From Ignicoccus islandicus DSM 13165 (lineage in GTDB: Archaea; Thermoproteota; Thermoprotei_A; Sulfolobales; Ignicoccaceae): DNA of 32,000 nucleotides. Each line of letters starts with the position of its first letter. Position 1 is the first letter of the stretch. The stretch spans positions 990,001 to 1,022,000 of the forward strand of contig NZ_CP006867.1 of the NCBI RefSeq assembly GCF_001481685.1, read 5' to 3'. Positions 4,479 to 21,558 of the stretch are shown one piece after another. The notes beneath the pieces were generated by a model. It was not told where the DNA came from and did not search any database. It saw nothing but the letters and a program-made list of their open reading frames with translations. The position numbers and the translations under genes are program-made.

Positions 4479-4742
4479 ATGGACCTAGGAGTGCCTTTGA
4501 TAATCTTAGGAATTACCTTGATTGTAATAGGAATAATCGTAAGCGTCTTATCGAAAGCTCAAAACGTCGAGTGGGGAGGCGGAGCCGTCATCTTCATTGG
4601 ACCCGTTCCAATAGTGATAGGCGGCGGGAAATTGGGATGGCTCGCAATTCTAATAGCCGTCTTACTAGCGTTTGCAATGATTCTAATGACGTTTGTTTAC
4701 CTTCGCTCAATGCCCCTTGAGCCCCCTCGCCAAACTCCCTAG
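4479..4742 (+). CDS. Small integral membrane protein (DUF131/TIGR00304-like)
   Basis: 87 aa with two or three hydrophobic helices and a Gly-rich loop (GGGAVIFIGPVPIVIGGGK) recalled from the archaeal DUF131 family. The 3' end overlaps the convergent aminotransferase gene by 36 nt. Confidence 0.55.
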   Translation: MDLGVPLIILGITLIVIGIIVSVLSKAQNVEWGGGAVIFIGPVPIVIGGGKLGWLAILIAVLLAFAMILMTFVYLRSMPLEPPRQTP

Positions 4743-5810
4743 TACTTCTAAGCCGTACTTAAGCTCAGCCGGTGGCGCAGAGAAGCTTATCCTCAGCGAC
4801 GTCTTACCGTATTTCTCTGAAAACACCTTACCTGGGATAGAAATTACCCCCTCCTTAGCTGCTTGCAAAGCTAGTTCTTCCGAGTCTACGCCGAAGTCCG
4901 GGAACGCGTAGAAAGATCCATCTCCAACTCCTGGAAAGTCCGAAATTCTCTTTAATACACTAATTACTTCCTCCCTCCTCTTTGCGTATTCGCTGACCAT
5001 GTCGTTTACGTGTCTCTCTATTACGTCGGGCTGCTCTAAGATCCTCTCGAGGGCTATTTGTTCCCATTTGCAAGGGCAGCCGTAGACGTTCGAGGCAACC
5101 GAAATGAGCTTCTTTATTACGTCCTCCTTCGCGACTATTGCGCCTAGCCTCCAACCGGGAATGCATAGTATCTTGCTGAAGCTATAGACAAAGGCCCCCG
5201 TTTCCCTCCACTTGGGCGTTGATAAGAAGCTCACGTGTTTACCATTGTACACGAACACGTCGTACGGCTCGTCGCTTACTACGTAGCTTTTCCTTTCCCA
5301 AGCCCTTTCAACCAAATCGAACATTCCGTCGCCTAGTACCGAACCGGTGGGATTGGAAGGCGAGTTAACGACCGTCAAGCCCTTGCTAGGTACTAAGGCG
5401 CTTAAGTCTTCGGGGAAGGAGTAACCGACCCCGCTCCTTACTAATGGAACTTTCCTTACAGGCCTACCTAAGGACTCGACCACTGGTTCGTAGCTGTAAT
5501 ACGTCGGATCAGTTAAAACGACCTCGCCTTTTGAGAAATAGAGCAAGGAGAGGTAAAGGGCGGCTTTACCGGAAGGGGTAACCATTACTTCCCTTTCAGA
5601 TATTTCAGTGTTATATCTTTCGGAGAACCACTCAGCTAATTTCCTTCTCAGAGAAGGAATGCCTCCGCTAGGGGTATACGTTGGCTTAATTTCGGTTGCT
5701 CTAATTAGTTCCTCGACCAATTCCCGGGGAGGGTTCTTATCGGGTTCGCCTAAACCCAAGTTAGCGCGAATTTCGCGAGCCAAGGACTTGGCCTTACTAA
5801 CGAAGGACAA
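4707..5810 (-). CDS. Class I/II pyridoxal-phosphate aminotransferase (aspartate aminotransferase-like)
   Basis: 367 aa. It carries NSPSNPTG and the PLP-lysine motif YSFSKILCIPGWRLG. Confidence 0.85.
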   Translation of the reverse strand: MSFVSKAKSLAREIRANLGLGEPDKNPPRELVEELIRATEIKPTYTPSGGIPSLRRKLAEWFSERYNTEISEREVMVTPSGKAALYLSLLYFSKGEVVLTDPTYYSYEPVVESLGRPVRKVPLVRSGVGYSFPEDLSALVPSKGLTVVNSPSNPTGSVLGDGMFDLVERAWERKSYVVSDEPYDVFVYNGKHVSFLSTPKWRETGAFVYSFSKILCIPGWRLGAIVAKEDVIKKLISVASNVYGCPCKWEQIALERILEQPDVIERHVNDMVSEYAKRREEVISVLKRISDFPGVGDGSFYAFPDFGVDSEELALQAAKEGVISIPGKVFSEKYGKTSLRISFSAPPAELKYGLEVLGSLARGLKGH

Positions 5811-6503: not shown

Positions 6504-6579
6504 AGCCGGGTCGTCTAGCGGCCAAGGATGCGGGGCTTTGGCCCCCGTGACCGGGGTTCGAATCCCCGCCCGGCTACCA
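6504..6579 (+). tRNA. tRNA-Gln (anticodon UUG), CCA encoded
   Basis: Hand-folded cloverleaf. The acceptor stem AGCCGGG/CCCGGCU has an A1-U72 pair. The anticodon stem CGGGG/CCCCG carries loop CUUUGGC. The T arm is CGGGG-UUCGAAU-CCCCG. The discriminator is A, and CCA lies at 6577-6579. Confidence 0.95.
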
Positions 6580-6866: not shown

Positions 6867-6874
6867 CTTTTAAA
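6867..6874 (+). promoter_or_regulatory. TATA-box-like element upstream of the cytochrome c gene
   Basis: cttttaaa lies about 40 nt upstream of the ATG at 6912, and a GAGGAGUGGUGA Shine-Dalgarno-like sequence follows at 6898-6909. Confidence 0.4.
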
Positions 6875-6911: not shown

Positions 6912-8567
6912 ATGAGATCGGCCTTAATGGCCCTGTTCTTCGCGGCCGCCTTACTGGCTATGCCAATGATGGGTCCAATGCATGGCGGAATGAACGAAAA
7001 CGCTAACACCATTGACCTCATGGCCGCCATAAACAACCTACCTAACGTTAGCCAACAGACCAAGGCTTGTCTCGCTTGCCACGTGCAATACACTCCCGGT
7101 ATAGTCGCTGACTGGCTCAAGAGCAAAATGGCTCACGTTACCCCAGCTGAAGCTTGGAAGAAGCCAGCCATCAAGAGAGAAGTGAGCACTCCGCTCGATG
7201 AGATACCGCCGCAATACAGGAACGTAGTGGTTGGATGTTACGAGTGTCACACAATGAACGCTGACAAGCACCCCGACACCGTTGACCACTTCGGCTTCAA
7301 GATACACCCAATAGTAACCCCTAACGACTGTAAGACCTGCCACAAGGTAGAGGTTGAACAGTACAGCCAAAGCAGCAAAGCATGGGCCTACAAGAACTTA
7401 ATGAAGAATCCGGTCTACAAGGGCCTAGTAGATGCTTCTACTACCTTCATGTGCATGGGTAAGAAGATAGGCGGTGAACAAACCAGCCAAGCTGCTAGCT
7501 GTCTGGAGTGCCACGGTACTGTAGTTAAAGTAAAGGGCTTCAAGCAAATAACTTACAAGGGCCTAGTTGTAACCGTACCGGACTACGAGGGTTGGCCTAA
7601 CCACGGAGTCGGTAGGGTCAACCCGGATGGGAGCAGGGGAGCTTGTACTGCTTGCCACCCCAGGCACAGCTTCGACATAGCTGTAGCTAGGAGCCCCTAC
7701 ACTTGCGGTCAATGCCACCTAGACCCGGACGTACCTGCCTTCAACGTATGGAAGGAGAGCAAGCACGGCAACCTATGGATGGTGCATCACAAGCGCTACA
7801 ACATGAAGGCTCCCGATTGGAAGCCTGGAGCTGACTTCCAAGCGCCCACGTGTGCAACTTGTCACATGAGCCAGTTAGTAGACCCGATAACTAAGCAAGT
7901 GATAGTACCTAGGACTCACAACGTTGACACTAGGCTATGGGTAAGGCTCTTCGGTCTAATTTACGCTCACCCAATGCCCAAGGTTGGAGACCACACCTTA
8001 CTGAGCGTTGAGGCCGTCCCAGCTAGCACTGCCGAGGCTCTAGCCAAGCAAGGACTAACCATAGCGAAGGCGTTAGTTGGAGTAAAGCTACCAATGCCGA
8101 TAAGCCTAGCGCCCGATGTAAAGACCGGCAAGTTCGTATACGCAAAGCTACCTAACGGCGAACCCGGCCTAATAAGCCCAGAGGAGCAAGCTAAGAGGAA
8201 GGAAACCATGAAGCTAATATGTACTCAATGCCACTCCAAGGATTACGTTGAGAACAAGTTCAAGCTACTAGACGAACAGATCAAGGAGAGCAACTTAGCG
8301 ACCCTAAAGGCAACCGTGCTACTACTGAAGGCGTGGCAGAGCGGCCTAGCTCACGTGGACCTAAAGGACCCGAAGACCCTCTTCGACGAGTACATTGAGA
8401 GGCTGTGGATAGAGAGCTGGCTGTTCTACGGCAACAGCATTAGGTACGGTACTGCGATGAACGGCCAAGACTGGACCACCTTCAAGAGAGGCTGGTACCA
8501 GTTAACTAAGGACCTAGAGCAAATGCAAATGTTACTCGAGCTATACAATAAGGCGGCCGCTAAGTAA
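6912..8567 (+). CDS. Octaheme c-type cytochrome, hydroxylamine oxidoreductase (HAO)-like family, secreted or membrane-associated
   Basis: There are eight CXXCH motifs (CLACH, CYECH, CKTCH, CLECH, CTACH, CGQCH, CATCH, CTQCH). The HAO-like block reads CTACHPRHSFDIAVARSPYTCGQCHLDPDVPAFNVWKESKHG. The N-terminal signal-like segment is MRSALMALFFAAALLAMPMMG. The track begins the ORF at GTG 6903, but I prefer ATG 6912 because of the SD-like sequence. Confidence 0.9.
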   Translation: MRSALMALFFAAALLAMPMMGPMHGGMNENANTIDLMAAINNLPNVSQQTKACLACHVQYTPGIVADWLKSKMAHVTPAEAWKKPAIKREVSTPLDEIPPQYRNVVVGCYECHTMNADKHPDTVDHFGFKIHPIVTPNDCKTCHKVEVEQYSQSSKAWAYKNLMKNPVYKGLVDASTTFMCMGKKIGGEQTSQAASCLECHGTVVKVKGFKQITYKGLVVTVPDYEGWPNHGVGRVNPDGSRGACTACHPRHSFDIAVARSPYTCGQCHLDPDVPAFNVWKESKHGNLWMVHHKRYNMKAPDWKPGADFQAPTCATCHMSQLVDPITKQVIVPRTHNVDTRLWVRLFGLIYAHPMPKVGDHTLLSVEAVPASTAEALAKQGLTIAKALVGVKLPMPISLAPDVKTGKFVYAKLPNGEPGLISPEEQAKRKETMKLICTQCHSKDYVENKFKLLDEQIKESNLATLKATVLLLKAWQSGLAHVDLKDPKTLFDEYIERLWIESWLFYGNSIRYGTAMNGQDWTTFKRGWYQLTKDLEQMQMLLELYNKAAAK

Positions 8568-8572
8568 AAAGA

Positions 8573-8579
8573 TTTTTTT
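8573..8579 (+). terminator. Oligo-T tract (archaeal intrinsic terminator-like) after the cytochrome gene
   Basis: A T7 run starts 6 nt after the stop codon (taaaaagattttttta). Confidence 0.4.
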
Positions 8580-8640
8580 AAGACACTTGCTCATACGCTC
8601 ATATATCCCGTTACTTCTCCCCTACTTTCGGGAGGCCGGA

Positions 8641-9063
8641 ATGAAACACCTCTTCTATAACACCGTAATTTTCGCGATGATCGTCCTAGGTTCGACGATC
8701 CTCTGCAGAGCTTTCGGCCTTCTCGGCTTCCTATGGACGTTCTTCGTAGCTTACAGCCTATACTTCCAACTTAGGAAGGACCTTTGCACCAATTGTCCCT
8801 TTTACGGCAAGCCTTGTTTCTCCGGCTGGGGCCTCCTAGCTAGCAAGTTGTTCGAAAGGAATTCCGGTAATTTCGAGAGGGGTAGGAAGCTAGCTGCCAT
8901 CACTTGGGGTTCCTTCTTACTGCTCCCACCGACGATTTTAATATTGGTAGGGGATTTGTTCACCTTAATTCTATGGCTCCTCGCTAGCTTTTACGTATTT
9001 AGCGAATTTTACAACTTCCACAAGACGTGTCCGCTAAGGAGCAAGTGCGAAGGAAAGGGGTAA
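8641..9063 (+). CDS. Cys-rich polytopic membrane protein, unknown function
   Basis: There are about four hydrophobic helices, plus the motifs CTNCPFYGKPC and CPLRSKC. I prefer ATG 8641 (preceded by GGGAGG) over the track's TTG at 8587. Confidence 0.55.
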   Translation: MKHLFYNTVIFAMIVLGSTILCRAFGLLGFLWTFFVAYSLYFQLRKDLCTNCPFYGKPCFSGWGLLASKLFERNSGNFERGRKLAAITWGSFLLLPPTILILVGDLFTLILWLLASFYVFSEFYNFHKTCPLRSKCEGKG

Positions 9064-9428: not shown

Positions 9429-9430
9429 GG

Positions 9431-9753
9431 TGCCGAAGGCCGCTATAGCCCACCTTCTGTACTTCGGCGGCATTTGGCTAAGCGGTCCCCGGGTCCCCCT
9501 TCCGCGGCGAGGCATCGGGGGACCCCCTTGCTCCCCGGAGGACGGCCGTTTCAGCCCCGCTAGGCCTTCATGGATCCGGATATCCTTCCCGTCGCCGGGA
9601 AGGAGTTCTCCATCCTCTCTCTGGCCCGGGGGTCTCGTTTCTGTGCCGGAGCCCGGGCTCTCAACCCGGTCCCTCGCGGGACTCCGGTGCCGCGGGGAGG
9701 GTGGAGCTTCCTCAGGGCCTTCGCGGCCCCGTGGCCGCCAGCGGCCTTCGGCC
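9431..9753 (-). ncRNA. rnpB: RNase P RNA (archaeal type A-like)
   Basis: Reading the minus strand, the 13-bp P1 is GCCGAAGGCCGCU (9752-9740) paired with AGCGGCCUUCGGC (9444-9432). P2 is GGCGGC (9739-9734) paired with GCCGCC (9471-9466). P3 is a hairpin GGGGCC-GCGAA-GGCCCU. The CR-I-like string GAGGAAGCUCCACC lies at 9713-9700. The CR-V-like string ACAGAAGGUGGGCUAU lies at 9460-9445. P4 forms as AGC[U]CCACC / GGUGGGCU with the universal bulged U. GGAGCAAGG and CUGAAAC strings and two GCGA tetraloop hairpins are also present. The segment is visibly far more G+C-rich than its flanks. Confidence 0.85.
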
Positions 9754-9811
9754 AGTAAACTTTAGGAACGTGAGGGAAATTAATTTGGAGGCTCGCTCAC
9801 GTTAGCACAAG

Positions 9812-11400: not shown

Positions 11401-12621
11401 ATGCGTGACGGTTCTCTAAGGTGCTGTACCTTAAGAGGCGGTTGGGACTTCAATCAAAAGCCCCTCCTAGTTTTCTGGGAGACAACTAAGGCTTGCAAGC
11501 TAGTTTGCAAGCACTGTAGGGCTGAGGCAATAGAGAAACCTTTGCCGGACGAGCTAACCACCGAGGAAGGCAAGAGGTTCATAGATCAAATAACTGAGTT
11601 CGGTAGCCCATACCCGCACTTGATAATGACTGGCGGAGACGTCCTCATGAGGAAGGATTTCTGGGAGCTAGCTCAATACAGTATATCCAAGGGAATTAGA
11701 ACTCTAGTTGCGCCTAGCGTAACGCCGTTATTGACAGAAGAGAAAATCAAGAGGATGAAGGAAATTGGAATAATTGGTATGAGTTTGAGCTTGGATGGAG
11801 CTAGACCGGAAGTTCACGACGAAATTAGGGGAATACCGGGAATATTCAATAGAACCGTTGAGGTAATGAAGTTCGTTAAGAGTATTGGTATGTTCTTGCA
11901 AATAAATACTGTTGTTATGAAGCCTACCATCAACGACTTGCCCGACGTTTTCAAGCTAATATACGACGTCGGAGTGGACGCTTGGGAAGTGTTCTTCCTA
12001 ATACCGACCGGAAGGGCCGGAGAGGAATTAGATTTAACGCCGGAAGAGTATTGGGACGTAGTTAACTTCCTTTACGACGCATCAAAGTACGGAAAGGTAA
12101 CTATAAGGACGACTGAAGCGCCGTTCTACAGAGTGGTCTACCGTCTCAGGGTGGTAATGGACGAAATGGGGAAAGACGTGAGCGAAATCGGGGTTGGCGA
12201 GTTGTACTATAAATTGAGAAGCAGGTTAGAAGAGGTCATGGGTCCGATCCCCAAGGAGCCTCCTAAGCAAAAGAGGGCGCCTTCCGCATACACTAGGGAC
12301 GGCTACGGAATAATTTTCGTTGCTTACAACGGCGACGTCTATCCTTCCGGGTTCCTACCCTACAAGGTGGGCAACGTTAGGGAAAGGAGCTTGAAAGACA
12401 TATACCTCAATAGTGACGCACTGAAGAGAATAAGGGATTGGAGGAACTTCAAGTCTCCTTGCGGAACTTGCGAGTTCGGTTTCATGTGCGGTGGAAGTAG
12501 GGCTAGAGCCTACGCGTACCAGAAGGATCCATTCGGTAGCGATCCGGCGTGTCTATACCCGAAAATAAGGGAGAAGTTGAACTCAATCATAGAAACGGCG
12601 TTGCAATTCAGCTCCAAATGA
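11401..12621 (+). CDS. Radical SAM enzyme with a C-terminal SPASM/twitch-like Cys cluster (NirJ/AhbC/AhbD-like)
   Basis: 406 aa. The N-terminal region reads FNQKPLLVFWETTKACKLVCKHCRAEA and contains the CX3CX2C motif. The C-terminal cluster is CGTCEFGFMCGGSRARAYAYQKDPFGSDPACLYP. Confidence 0.85.
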   Translation: MRDGSLRCCTLRGGWDFNQKPLLVFWETTKACKLVCKHCRAEAIEKPLPDELTTEEGKRFIDQITEFGSPYPHLIMTGGDVLMRKDFWELAQYSISKGIRTLVAPSVTPLLTEEKIKRMKEIGIIGMSLSLDGARPEVHDEIRGIPGIFNRTVEVMKFVKSIGMFLQINTVVMKPTINDLPDVFKLIYDVGVDAWEVFFLIPTGRAGEELDLTPEEYWDVVNFLYDASKYGKVTIRTTEAPFYRVVYRLRVVMDEMGKDVSEIGVGELYYKLRSRLEEVMGPIPKEPPKQKRAPSAYTRDGYGIIFVAYNGDVYPSGFLPYKVGNVRERSLKDIYLNSDALKRIRDWRNFKSPCGTCEFGFMCGGSRARAYAYQKDPFGSDPACLYPKIREKLNSIIETALQFSSK

Positions 12622-15783: not shown

Positions 15784-17124
15784 ATGTTGGGAAGCCTTCC
15801 GGCCCTAGAGGCCTCTAGAAGCAAGGAGTTCATTAGCCAATGGATTCTCCTAAACCAAGTTCCAATAAGAAACATACCCCTAATAGTCCACTCTAGGCCA
15901 GGGTTCTCAATGAACAAGTTAATAGAATGGGCTTTCCACGAGACCATTGAAGGAGTTAAGAAGTGGTACGAAGCCGGAGGAGGCATTGCCACTTCCTACG
16001 ACAAGTTGCTGAATCACTTGGAAACAGTCGAAGGTCGGAGCTTACATAAATTGGTGAAATACGATAAGGTCACCAAGCTTACTAACGAACTACGTCGGGT
16101 TGACGAGCCCTTATTACTAACCGTAACTCCCAGTTTCCTAGCTAAGGAGGACCTCTGGAAAATAGTAGAAACAATGGAGGAATCCGTCTTCCCATTGCTA
16201 CACGTATACAACTTCCTAGACCTCAGCGATCCGAGGCTGATCGAACTCTATGAGTTAATATTGCAAGGAGACGTTAGCGTCAACGTACCAGTAATTTTCT
16301 CGCAGCAACTGGTCCCCGGCATAAGTAAGAGGTTCATGACCTTAGGGATGATTGGAGGAGCCGTAATCCAGTCCTTGTTACCTAAAGTGAACGAGTGGGA
16401 AGAATACTTGAAATTCAAGTATGAAGGAAAGTACGACAAGTCTACCGTAGAGTTCTTGAAGCTGTTCTCGCCAAGCTACAACATTGGTGAACCTTTCAAA
16501 TACGTACTTGTCAACTTAAACAAAGAGAACTTCGGTATAGAGGACCCGTTCATTGCAGAGGAGCTTCAAGTTCACGAAAGAGAGGGTAAGTTAATAGAAG
16601 CGGCGCCTTCCCTAGGTTTCGGTAACGAAGTAATTCCCCTACCGGACGTTTGGGAGAGGGTCGTAACGCTACCTTGGCAGTTGAGCGGTTTAGCGGAAGA
16701 GGTGGCCCTACATCTGCTAGGCTCCTATCCGCTAGTTAGAACGCTTGCTAGAACCAGGAAGAGGGCTGCCTATATATCTTCGATACTCAAGGGCTTATAC
16801 GAGAGGAGCTTCAACGCTCAACTCCAAACTATAAGGGGCATGATATCATTTATAAAAAGAGATTTGCTCAATGCCATTGAAGATACGGTAATAGCCTCAG
16901 CCCTCATAATAAGGGCTATGGACGTACTCTACGACTACGCTGAGAAATATGAGGGCATAGAGAATTGCGGTGAGCCTTGCGAAGCTATAAAGGCGTATTG
17001 CGAGTTGTACGAACAGTTCAGAGACGCGGAAGGGTTAGAGCCCGTAATAGAAGAGCTTGAAGAGGTGATAGTGGAGCTTACCGGAATGGGAGTAGAGAAG
17101 GCATGCGAAAGGAAAGCTTTATGA
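15784..17124 (+). CDS. Hypothetical protein (446 aa), first gene of an uncharacterised two-gene cassette
   Basis: This is a long ORF with coding-like composition. The start is uncertain (ATG 15784 or ATG 15910, MNKLIEWAF...). I recognise no motif. The stop TGA at 17122-17124 overlaps the ATG of the next gene. Confidence 0.6.
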   Translation: MLGSLPALEASRSKEFISQWILLNQVPIRNIPLIVHSRPGFSMNKLIEWAFHETIEGVKKWYEAGGGIATSYDKLLNHLETVEGRSLHKLVKYDKVTKLTNELRRVDEPLLLTVTPSFLAKEDLWKIVETMEESVFPLLHVYNFLDLSDPRLIELYELILQGDVSVNVPVIFSQQLVPGISKRFMTLGMIGGAVIQSLLPKVNEWEEYLKFKYEGKYDKSTVEFLKLFSPSYNIGEPFKYVLVNLNKENFGIEDPFIAEELQVHEREGKLIEAAPSLGFGNEVIPLPDVWERVVTLPWQLSGLAEEVALHLLGSYPLVRTLARTRKRAAYISSILKGLYERSFNAQLQTIRGMISFIKRDLLNAIEDTVIASALIIRAMDVLYDYAEKYEGIENCGEPCEAIKAYCELYEQFRDAEGLEPVIEELEEVIVELTGMGVEKACERKAL

Positions 17125-17711
17125 AAAGGAAACGTGCCCAGAGCTTAATGCAATTAATGGACATTGGTCTGAATACACCAATTTTCGTTGTTGTTACTCA
17201 GTCGAACTTAAGGGGACTGGAGCACTTCAAGAAGCAATGCGCAATACGGTTCGACGAACTAGCTTGCGAGCTACCCGAAGTAGACGCTTTAGTGGTACCG
17301 GGACCGCCCCCGCTCATAGCTCACTCTTCGCCATGCATTGCCAAGGAACTTCTCAGAGAGTTGGCTGAAAGGGGTTGCCCCTTCGAGGCCCAAGTTACGG
17401 ACGTCACGATAAAGGATAGCGTTGGAGCGGGCGCTTCCATAAAGTTCGACGGAAAGGTAATGGCTGAAGTAGCTATTGGCGGGAGCGTTAGGGACGTAAC
17501 TAGGAGGGGCAAGATAGACGCGAGGGCCTACTTAGAAGGTAATGCCATGAAGGTAATTGGCTCCTTGGGAGGCTTACTCGCCTATTGCACGTTCGAGAGC
17601 TTACTCGCACTAAGGAGAATGCCGGATGGAGTGCTGGAATGGAGCTGCCACGAAGGTAAATACGGCGTGAGGGGCGATCACGTGATCTTCTGGGAGTACC
17701 ATCCCTTGTGA
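17121..17711 (+). CDS. Small protein resembling a reduced PEP synthase/PPDK_N-type ATP-grasp domain
   Basis: About 196 aa from ATG 17121 (the track uses the in-frame ATG 17103). Three segments align by eye with E. coli PpsA N-domain blocks. LMDIGLNTPIFVVVTQSNLRGLEHF matches G..VP.GF..T..AF..F. GASIKFDGKVMAEVAIGGSVRDVTRRGKIDARAYL matches GVMFS.D...V.I.SAWGLGE.VV.G.V.PD.F.V. VLEWSCHEGKYGVRGDHVIFWEYHP matches DIEWAKDG..GKLFIVQARP. Confidence 0.5.
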   Translation: MKRKRAQSLMQLMDIGLNTPIFVVVTQSNLRGLEHFKKQCAIRFDELACELPEVDALVVPGPPPLIAHSSPCIAKELLRELAERGCPFEAQVTDVTIKDSVGAGASIKFDGKVMAEVAIGGSVRDVTRRGKIDARAYLEGNAMKVIGSLGGLLAYCTFESLLALRRMPDGVLEWSCHEGKYGVRGDHVIFWEYHPL

Positions 17712-18867: not shown

Positions 18868-19737
18868 TTAAGTAATTAGTTTGCATCTCTTTAAATACTC
18901 TTCAAGAGACTCGCAAGGCATTAGGTAGGTTCTACCTAGGATACAATTTTCTATTTCGTTAACGAAGACTTCGTATAGTTCGCCGAGCGCTCTTTGGTAA
19001 TAGCTCTTGTAAGGCTCTTTGGAAAGCCTTTCCTTGAAGTTAACGCTACTAACTACTAAGTTCAATAAAGGCAAGAGCACTACGTCCTTCAATCCCTCGT
19101 GAACGTAGTATATGCTTTCAATGTTAGATAGAGCCATTAATATAGCTGTAGTGTAAGCGACCTCGGGCTTGAAGCCTCCAGTTAAGTTGGCCAAAACCCT
19201 CCATCCCCTTTCACATAACCTCAAGGCGCAACAAACTAGATTGAGCAAGCCTACGTAGAAGCTAGCGGGAGAGAAGCTCGAGCCGAGGTTTCCTAACGCT
19301 TTAACAACGTAGGTGCTTACCTTTGGCTTCAAGTAGTACCCATCTACGTCTATCCCCCTCTCCAAGACCTCTCTCAGTACGTAACACGAAGCCGCTCCCG
19401 TAGGGGTTTCAGAGCAAATTAGCGATACCTCGTCTAAGACGGGTTCCTTGCCGTTATTGATGTAAATCGACCTCATGAACTTTATTAAGGAGTTCAGTTC
19501 AGCGGACATAATTTCTGGATGTTCCCTAACTACTTCAACTAAGTCGTCTAGCTTAGCGTTAACCTTTTCACCGCACTTAACCTTGTTTGAGGCCAGCCTC
19601 TCCAGGTCCTCGTTCACGATCTCTTTCAACCGATCCTGAAGCTGGGCAGCGATGCCCCTACCTATGCTTCCCATAACCGAGTTAGTCAAAACGCTACTTC
19701 CTACCGTTATTATGTGACGAACGGGCTTCTCACTCAT
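18868..19737 (-). CDS. CARF-domain-like protein (Cas_APE2256-like), no recognisable effector domain
   Basis: 289 aa. The motif order is HIITVGSSVLTN (res 8-19), SAELNSL (78-84), LICSETPTG (106-114) and NLTGGFKPE (184-192). This matches my recollection of the APE2256/Csm6-Csx1-type CARF fold signatures (tvGTS..., ...TGG(T/F/Y)K). No RX4-6H HEPN motif is seen. Confidence 0.55.
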   Translation of the reverse strand: MSEKPVRHIITVGSSVLTNSVMGSIGRGIAAQLQDRLKEIVNEDLERLASNKVKCGEKVNAKLDDLVEVVREHPEIMSAELNSLIKFMRSIYINNGKEPVLDEVSLICSETPTGAASCYVLREVLERGIDVDGYYLKPKVSTYVVKALGNLGSSFSPASFYVGLLNLVCCALRLCERGWRVLANLTGGFKPEVAYTTAILMALSNIESIYYVHEGLKDVVLLPLLNLVVSSVNFKERLSKEPYKSYYQRALGELYEVFVNEIENCILGRTYLMPCESLEEYLKRCKLIT

Positions 19738-21480: not shown

Positions 21481-21558
21481 GCCGCGGTAGTATAGCCAGG
21501 CCTAGTATGCGGGCCTGTCGAGCCCGTGACCCGGGTTCAAATCCCGGCCGCGGCGCCA
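21481..21558 (+). tRNA. tRNA-Asp (anticodon GUC), CCA encoded
   Basis: Hand-folded cloverleaf. The acceptor stem is GCCGCGG/CCGCGGC. The anticodon stem CGGGC/GCCCG carries loop CUGUCGA. The T arm is CCGGG-UUCAAAU-CCCGG. The discriminator is G, and CCA lies at 21556-21558. Confidence 0.95.

Follow-up and report, generated by a model that had tools for sequence, protein, structure and literature searches.

Which kind of multiheme cytochrome does Ignicoccus islandicus DSM 13165 encode next to a small Cys-rich membrane protein, in which direction would such a cytochrome work, and do the two proteins belong together? The locus that raises these questions lies in a stretch of 32,000 nucleotides from contig NZ_CP006867.1 (positions 990,001 to 1,022,000 of the forward strand; the whole stretch is called the window in the following), in which an open reading frame (ORF) at 6912-8567 on the plus strand encodes an octaheme cytochrome c of 551 amino acids. 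A first reading of the letters, referred to here as the original prediction, had proposed an HAO-like octaheme cytochrome and had considered the membrane protein encoded downstream of it as a possible unconventional partner. Taking all results together, we regard it as very probable that the gene is the ortholog of IhOCC from Ignicoccus hospitalis, that it stands alone, that its product is a non-oxidative cytochrome of the HAO superfamily, and that the neighboring four-transmembrane (4-TM) protein is unrelated to it.

The identity of the gene is clear. Its product is the exact sequence of ALU11878.1/WP_075050051.1 of I. islandicus DSM 13165, as seen from the protein cluster members, and the suspicion that the DNA comes from a relative of I. 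hospitalis was correct. The Logan assembly L011 matches the window with 99.97% identity across 11.4 kb and represents the same organism. In the databases, the protein is named either “hydroxylamine oxidase”, which is the GenBank product name, or “multiheme c-type cytochrome”. A phmmer search against PDB matched residues 31–549 to positions 1–519 of the 4QO5 chain without gaps (E = 2.7e-290), and the identity with the I. hospitalis protein is 75% in the alignment and about 77% by tblastn. The 4QO5 entry is the crystallized IhOCC of I. hospitalis (PMC9250108, Table 1; structure paper Parey et al. 2016, FEBS J 283:3807, as referenced in PMC8840924), and IhOCC is Igni_0955, a membrane-associated octaheme cytochrome (PMC4429474). 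Both proteins are 551 amino acids long, and all Cys, along with all His of the mature protein, are retained in the I. hospitalis sequence, including 16/16 heme Cys, 8/8 proximal His and an extra Cys at position 181. With this full-length match of high identity, in which all heme ligands are kept, the gene at 6912-8567 belongs to the IhOCC-type octaheme cytochromes and is the I. islandicus ortholog of IhOCC/Igni_0955. It is, consequently, already known: it is annotated in GenBank and RefSeq, and a close ortholog has a crystal structure and a literature. The two genes differ in that the one described here belongs to another species with a lower genomic G+C content and has different flanking regions on both sides. 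Further, the I. islandicus protein is known here from its sequence, whereas the measurements concern the I. hospitalis protein; a five-coordinate heme 4 lacking P460, an association with the membrane and reductase activity in vitro were reported for the latter only (PMC9250108, PMC4429474).

The gene and the elements at its borders are as follows:

6867..6874, plus strand: TATA-like box (CTTTTAAA), about 40 nt 5′ of the start codon; putative promoter element
6912..8567, plus strand: octaheme cytochrome c gene, ortholog of IhOCC/Igni_0955
6912..7001, plus strand: signal peptide region, residues 1–30; residue 31 corresponds to the first residue of the 4QO5 chain, putative cleavage site
8573..8579, plus strand: oligo-T tract (T7), 6 nt past the stop codon; probable archaeal transcription stop

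A GGTGA element resembling a Shine-Dalgarno sequence is located at −9 to −5 of the start codon, and the stop codon occupies 8565-8567. The same upstream layout is found in the related contig L006, and comparable A/T boxes lie 40–46 nt upstream of the orthologs in I. hospitalis (L003) and in the contigs L005 and L007.

The cytochrome contains CXXCH exactly eight times, with first residues 53, 109, 140, 197, 245, 265, 314 and 437, and a motif count over its 551 amino acids detected no CXXCK. Its Cys residues number 17 in total, with C181 as the only one outside the heme motifs. Among all ORFs of at least 60 amino acids, in any frame of the window, it is the sole one bearing CXXCH. The N-terminus (MRSALMALFFAAALLAM...) resembles a signal peptide, a helix is found at residues 2–15 in the AlphaFold2 (AF2) model, and A31 is the position matched by the first residue of the 4QO5 chain. 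The HAO-family block CTACHPRHSF...CGQCH...SKHG covers residues 245–286. The eight motifs, the extra Cys, the signal-like N-terminus and this block had been pointed out in the original prediction and are present, as is the oligo-T tract behind the gene. For comparison with the wider family, 24 homologs of the cytochrome (7 from the Ignicoccus clade and 17 others) were aligned and also used as a profile. In this alignment, all heme-binding Cys and the proximal His are invariant, and six further His that are invariant or nearly so (H120, H126, H252, H285, H336, H353) are candidate distal ligands. The preference for C/G-ending two-fold codons was confirmed as well: 94% of the Lys, Tyr, Asn, Phe and His codons of the cytochrome gene end in C or G, compared to 77 ± 6.6% in 34 further genes from the window, which puts it first among the 35. 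This codon bias fits high expression.

Several comparisons place the protein in the HAO superfamily. It matches Pfam PF13447, the HAO-type multiheme family, with E = 7.7e-16 and 58.6 bits (cut-off 21.9), and a search of PDB with the profile of the 24 homologs retrieved only chains of HAO, HDH and HAO-like proteins. Aligning the family to an HAO alignment with hhalign resulted in a probability of 99.9% (E = 4e-36, 408 columns, 26% identity). The AF2 model, which has a mean predicted local distance difference test (pLDDT) score of 70 and was used for fold ranking only, found 4QO5 as its top hit in Foldseek, with template-modeling scores (TM-scores) of 0.79 and 0.83. Ranks 2–10 were all HAO, HDH or HAO-like (E = 2e-8 to 2e-5), with TM-scores of 0.40–0.52 only, since the model is poor without hemes. 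Thus, eight CXXCH in HAO order, profile similarity and an HAO-like fold agree, and the idea of an octaheme cytochrome c of this superfamily, which is clade 1 in PMC9250108, is borne out. The other multiheme families considered fared differently, as ONR and NrfA reached E-values of at least 0.07 in Foldseek and OTR was not matched. Together with MccA, these are multiheme c-type enzymes of a wider grafted-module superfamily (PMC9250108). The CXXCK of the Lys-ligated catalytic heme, which characterizes ONR and NrfA, is absent from the cytochrome, and none of the four was matched by sequence in the PDB searches.

Compared to the oxidative HAO and HDH enzymes (N. europaea HAO, 1FGJ/4FAS; Kuenenia HAO, 4N4J; HDH, 6HIF), the order and spacing of the heme motifs are alike and the C-terminal helices are homologous (Foldseek E = 1e-5 to 1e-7). 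The C-terminus of the cytochrome is shorter, however, and a strand-rich segment at approximately 204–240 is not found in HAO. The decisive differences concern the catalytic site. HMMER alignments to 1FGJ and 4N4J end before the Tyr that forms the cross-link and, therefore, hhalign was used. Full-length HAO genes of the N. europaea type were taken from metagenome contigs, and Tyr467 was located in a gene with 98% identity (locus L013); the numbering of N. europaea HAO was checked on fragments of 1FGJ (NPGGWTY467TEGW; Asp267-His268 in CATCHSGVDHNNW). The positions of interest in the cytochrome are:

7644..7658, plus strand: heme-4 motif C245-T-A-C248-H249; its counterpart in HAO is CDNCH, the motif of the catalytic (P460) heme (hhalign); invariant in 24/24 family members
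7728..7733, plus strand: D273-V274, aligned with the distal pair Asp267-His268 of HAO, with His replaced by Val
8481..8483, plus strand: F524, aligned with Tyr467 of N. europaea HAO; T523 in an alternative register, with no Tyr either way

The Asp of the distal pair is kept while the His is lost, and F524, D273 and V274 are each invariant in 24/24 family members. The P460 cross-linking Tyr, whose presence had been left to a structural alignment in the original prediction, is not found. The two hallmarks of an oxidative P460 enzyme, the cross-linking Tyr and the distal Asp-His pair, are both absent.

The GenBank name implies an oxidoreductase that truly oxidizes hydroxylamine (or hydrazine), and the HAO fold and the heme motifs would indeed suit such an enzyme. 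Since cross-linking Tyr and distal His are missing, the sequence points to a reductase or an electron carrier instead of a hydroxylamine oxidase, and the product name is probably wrong regarding the direction. The host is, moreover, a strictly anaerobic chemolithoautotroph living on H2 and S0, which also speaks against oxidation of hydroxylamine. The 4QO5 ortholog lacks P460 and is classed as an octaheme nitrite reductase (PMC9250108), and HAO homologs without the cross-link act as reductases and do not oxidize hydroxylamine (PMC8042395). We consider the oxidative function to be already largely refuted, with a next to negligible chance of being correct. Substrate and direction of catalysis had both been regarded as unknown initially; for the direction this is no longer entirely the case, as Tyr and distal His are gone and IhOCC is called a nitrite reductase.

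A close parallel is the Kuenenia HAOr Kustc0458 (6H5L), the second-best PDB match in both sequence and fold, which likewise has no cross-linking Tyr and for which a reductive function is expected. However, Kustc0458 retains the D-H pair (..CHMGPDHPD..) where the cytochrome has D-V, and it forms a complex with the diheme cytochrome Kustc0457 (PMC8042395), for which no corresponding partner gene exists here. The epsilon-proteobacterial Hao may be mentioned too, as it is described as having no Tyr cross-link and a reductive direction is expected for it.

Some regions set the Ignicoccus proteins apart from their homologs. Residues 70–75 (7119-7136) contain SKMAH in 7/7 proteins of the Ignicoccus clade, compared to S-x-H-A in the 17 other homologs and in HAO; in other words, Met occupies the place of a His that is conserved in all the others, with an additional His two positions further on, which may amount to a change of an axial heme ligand. 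Residues 365–412 (8004-8147) contain two insertions of approximately 35 residues in total, modeled with pLDDT 81–92, which are specific to the Ignicoccus clade and not found in Pyrolobus, Ferroglobus or bacterial homologs. C181 is also specific to this clade. Insertions and C181 may have a relation to membrane association. SKMAH and the insertions are common to the cytochrome and IhOCC.

A few points weigh against our interpretation. Owing to Met in place of the invariant His, the ligation of one heme may differ from HAO. Moving the one-residue gap in the hhalign alignment could bring T523 instead of F524 into register with Tyr467. The AF2 model is of low confidence in the catalytic core (pLDDT < 50 at residues 245–312). 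Finally, localization, coupling to hydrogenase, lack of quinones and presence of ccm genes are transferred from I. hospitalis.

Is the gene in fact without partners? Scanning the larger ORFs of the window against Pfam and NCBIfam detected no ccm, NapC/NrfH or c554-like genes. At the I. hospitalis locus (L003), no cytochrome, ccm, NapC/NrfH or c554 gene is adjacent to the ortholog, the gene standing alone in both species. Adjacent cytochrome, NapC/NrfH, c554 and ccm genes are similarly absent from contigs of metagenomes or metagenome-assembled genomes (MAGs) with orthologs of 76–77% identity (L005, L007, L008), and from the loci of the Pyrolobus fumarii (L093), Ferroglobus placidus (L094) and Jettenia (L095) orthologs; in P. 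fumarii, a second PF13447 protein is encoded approximately 5 kb upstream. The original prediction was right in that no partner or maturation gene is nearby. Nevertheless, this is not unusual, as the same is true across the ortholog loci. A stand-alone arrangement is the norm for the IhOCC-type family, and the missing partner is no anomaly. In line with this, an oligo-T run is present within approximately 45 nt of the stop codon in every ortholog, whatever gene is located downstream.

The physiology of I. hospitalis agrees with this arrangement. No quinones were found in this organism by solvent extraction, and its genome carries genes for CcmB, CcmC, CcmE and CcmF (PMC4429474). Igni_0955 was purified from the soluble as well as the membrane fraction, immunolabeling located it to both membranes, and the native hydrogenase reduces it (PMC4429474). 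Because quinones were not found and Igni_0955 accepts electrons from hydrogenase, a quinol dehydrogenase partner is, by analogy, not expected for the I. islandicus cytochrome.

Two observations concern the upstream surroundings of the orthologs. In I. hospitalis, a gene for a hybrid-cluster protein (Prismane/Hcp; L003 5392-6750) lies approximately 3 kb upstream of Igni_0955, and family scans of the ORFs detected no Hcp gene in the window. A class I/II aminotransferase is encoded divergently upstream of the cytochrome both in the window (4707-5810, minus strand) and in F. placidus (L094 4733-5866, minus strand), which is probably a coincidence.

The remaining candidate for a partner is the gene directly downstream:

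8600-8606: TATA-like box CATATAT, preceding EYM_05720
8641..9063, plus strand: EYM_05720, 4-TM Cys-rich protein of an uncharacterized family, 140 amino acids

Its product matches EYM_05720 of I. islandicus DSM 13165 with 100% identity. The four helices and the motifs CTNCPFYGKPC and CPLRSKC described for it before are present in the ORF and in its AlphaFold model, which consists of four long helices.

One might assume that cytochrome and 4-TM protein form a two-gene redox module, in which the membrane protein anchors the cytochrome or feeds electrons to it, replacing NapC/NrfH. The two genes are on the same strand and 73 nt apart, the conserved Cys/His of the 4-TM protein suggest a metal site, and two related lineages also have the genes next to each other. 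In one of them (L006), the cytochrome is approximately 88% identical and the next ORF starts with MKGYLLYNIVIMAMVIGG; in the other (L012), the contig ends within the upstream ORF, the remaining part of which shares 88% identity with the cytochrome. However, L012 also retains the whole downstream block (DUF424, CxxCxxCC, metallophosphatase, radical SAM/SPASM, ArsB), which points to ordinary local synteny among close relatives. Outside the I. islandicus subclade, represented by the window, L011, L006 and L012, the adjacency is not found: I. hospitalis, L005 and L007/L008 each have another gene behind the cytochrome (helix-turn-helix protein, rubrerythrin-like protein, GlmS-like amidotransferase/SIS-domain gene). 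Conversely, 4-TM homologs of I. pacificus (L009) and of a MAG contig (L010) have no cytochrome within the 3–8 kb of flanking sequence that was covered.

The structure of the locus argues against a module as well. Separate transcription of the two genes is likelier, since an oligo-T run and a TATA-like box lie between them and the spacer, which varies from 73 to approximately 135 nt, is not conserved in sequence. K/R-rich loops would put the Cys cluster on the cytoplasmic side of the membrane, opposite to an exported cytochrome, and no conserved pair of transmembrane His for heme b is present. Further, the wider 4-TM family extends far beyond this setting, to 121 representative clusters (profile search, E ≤ 1e-3) with one member from a Diapherotrites MAG. 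For these reasons, a two-gene module appears very unlikely, the proposal of an unconventional membrane partner is not supported, and EYM_05720 is most likely an independent neighbor gene that is no part of the cytochrome system. A variant of the idea, that the I. islandicus subclade has recruited the 4-TM protein (C-x2-C-x6-C, H/C-x2-C-x5-C) to serve the cytochrome, in this lineage specifically, as its receptor or redox partner in the membrane, seems extremely doubtful to us. If it were true, it would represent a new type of link from the cytoplasm to extracytoplasmic multiheme cytochromes, in an organism without quinones.

Considered as an independent protein, EYM_05720 is, by its sequence, a member of an undescribed family of small 4-TM proteins. 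Five Cys are invariant among its close homologs, and six Cys/His positions are conserved in the wider family, which shares a loop LRKxLCTNCxYYGKxCxxGWGKL and a C-terminal C/H-x2-C-x5-C motif; these conserved residues likely form a metal site facing the cytoplasm. No Pfam or NCBIfam model matched the family. The UniRef label DUF4395 was not confirmed, as no Pfam match to it was found for EYM_05720 and four close homologs at E ≤ 10, or among 30 members of the wider family at E ≤ 0.01. A Foldseek search with the EYM_05720 model yielded no meaningful hit (best E = 1.9).

How might the cytochrome work without a dedicated partner? We propose that the stand-alone gene is probably monocistronic and highly expressed, and that its product would be exported by means of a Sec-type signal peptide and processed near residue 30. 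The eight hemes would be attached at the CXXCH motifs by the archaeal form of Ccm system I, whose genes would lie in another part of the genome, and the mature cytochrome would act beyond the cytoplasmic membrane, in the Ignicoccus intermembrane compartment. Heme 4 is a candidate for an open-coordination site on the HAO heme scaffold. The protein would, in this scheme, be an HAO-superfamily protein of the reductive or electron-transfer type, fed by hydrogenase, not by a quinol dehydrogenase. By analogy with I. hospitalis, our best guess is an abundant electron relay which takes electrons from the H2-oxidizing hydrogenase, with reduction of nitrite or hydroxylamine as a side reaction or for detoxification.

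Alternatively, the same protein could be a dedicated reductase of nitrite, hydroxylamine or NO, serving detoxification or ammonification, and not a relay. In accordance with such a role, PMC9250108 lists IhOCC among the octaheme nitrite reductases, HAOs free of the cross-link reduce nitrite, NO and hydroxylamine (PMC8042395), and the Hcp gene of I. hospitalis is located close to Igni_0955. On the other hand, the high abundance of the protein (PMC4429474) and the strong codon bias suit a core bioenergetic component better. The window shows no linkage to Hcp, and the cytochrome lacks the distal His on which HAO-type active sites rely. Ignicoccus is not known to respire N-oxides. A role as dedicated N-oxide reductase is possible, though on the unlikely side, and we favor the electron relay.

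The window contains a number of further features. An archaeal RNase P RNA (RF00373, 152.7 bits) is located at 9434-9750 on the minus strand, and the G+C-rich ORFs at 9430-9765 are spurious because of it. A tRNA-Gln(TTG) lies just upstream of the cytochrome gene (6504-6579, plus strand), where a stretch of 81 nt over the tRNA is 100% identical in L006, and a tRNA-Asp(GTC) is found at 21481-21558 (plus strand). A radical SAM/SPASM protein is encoded at 11401-12621 (plus strand), 2.8 kb downstream of the cytochrome, with its synteny kept in L012. It matches TIGR04053 with 487 bits (cut-off 395) and is related to the heme b synthase AhbD, although its 289 bits for the AhbD model are below the cut-off of 500 bits; a link to heme synthesis may exist. 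A CRISPR-associated protein of the Cas_APE2256 family is encoded at 18868-19737 (minus strand), and two consecutive ORFs at 15784-17711 (plus strand), of 446 and 202 amino acids, have no match in Pfam or NCBIfam.

As a discovery, the cytochrome is of little importance. For the IhOCC-type family, its meaning is that the lack of a partner gene should not be read as an anomaly. The Cys-rich 4-TM family, on the other hand, could be studied for its own sake.

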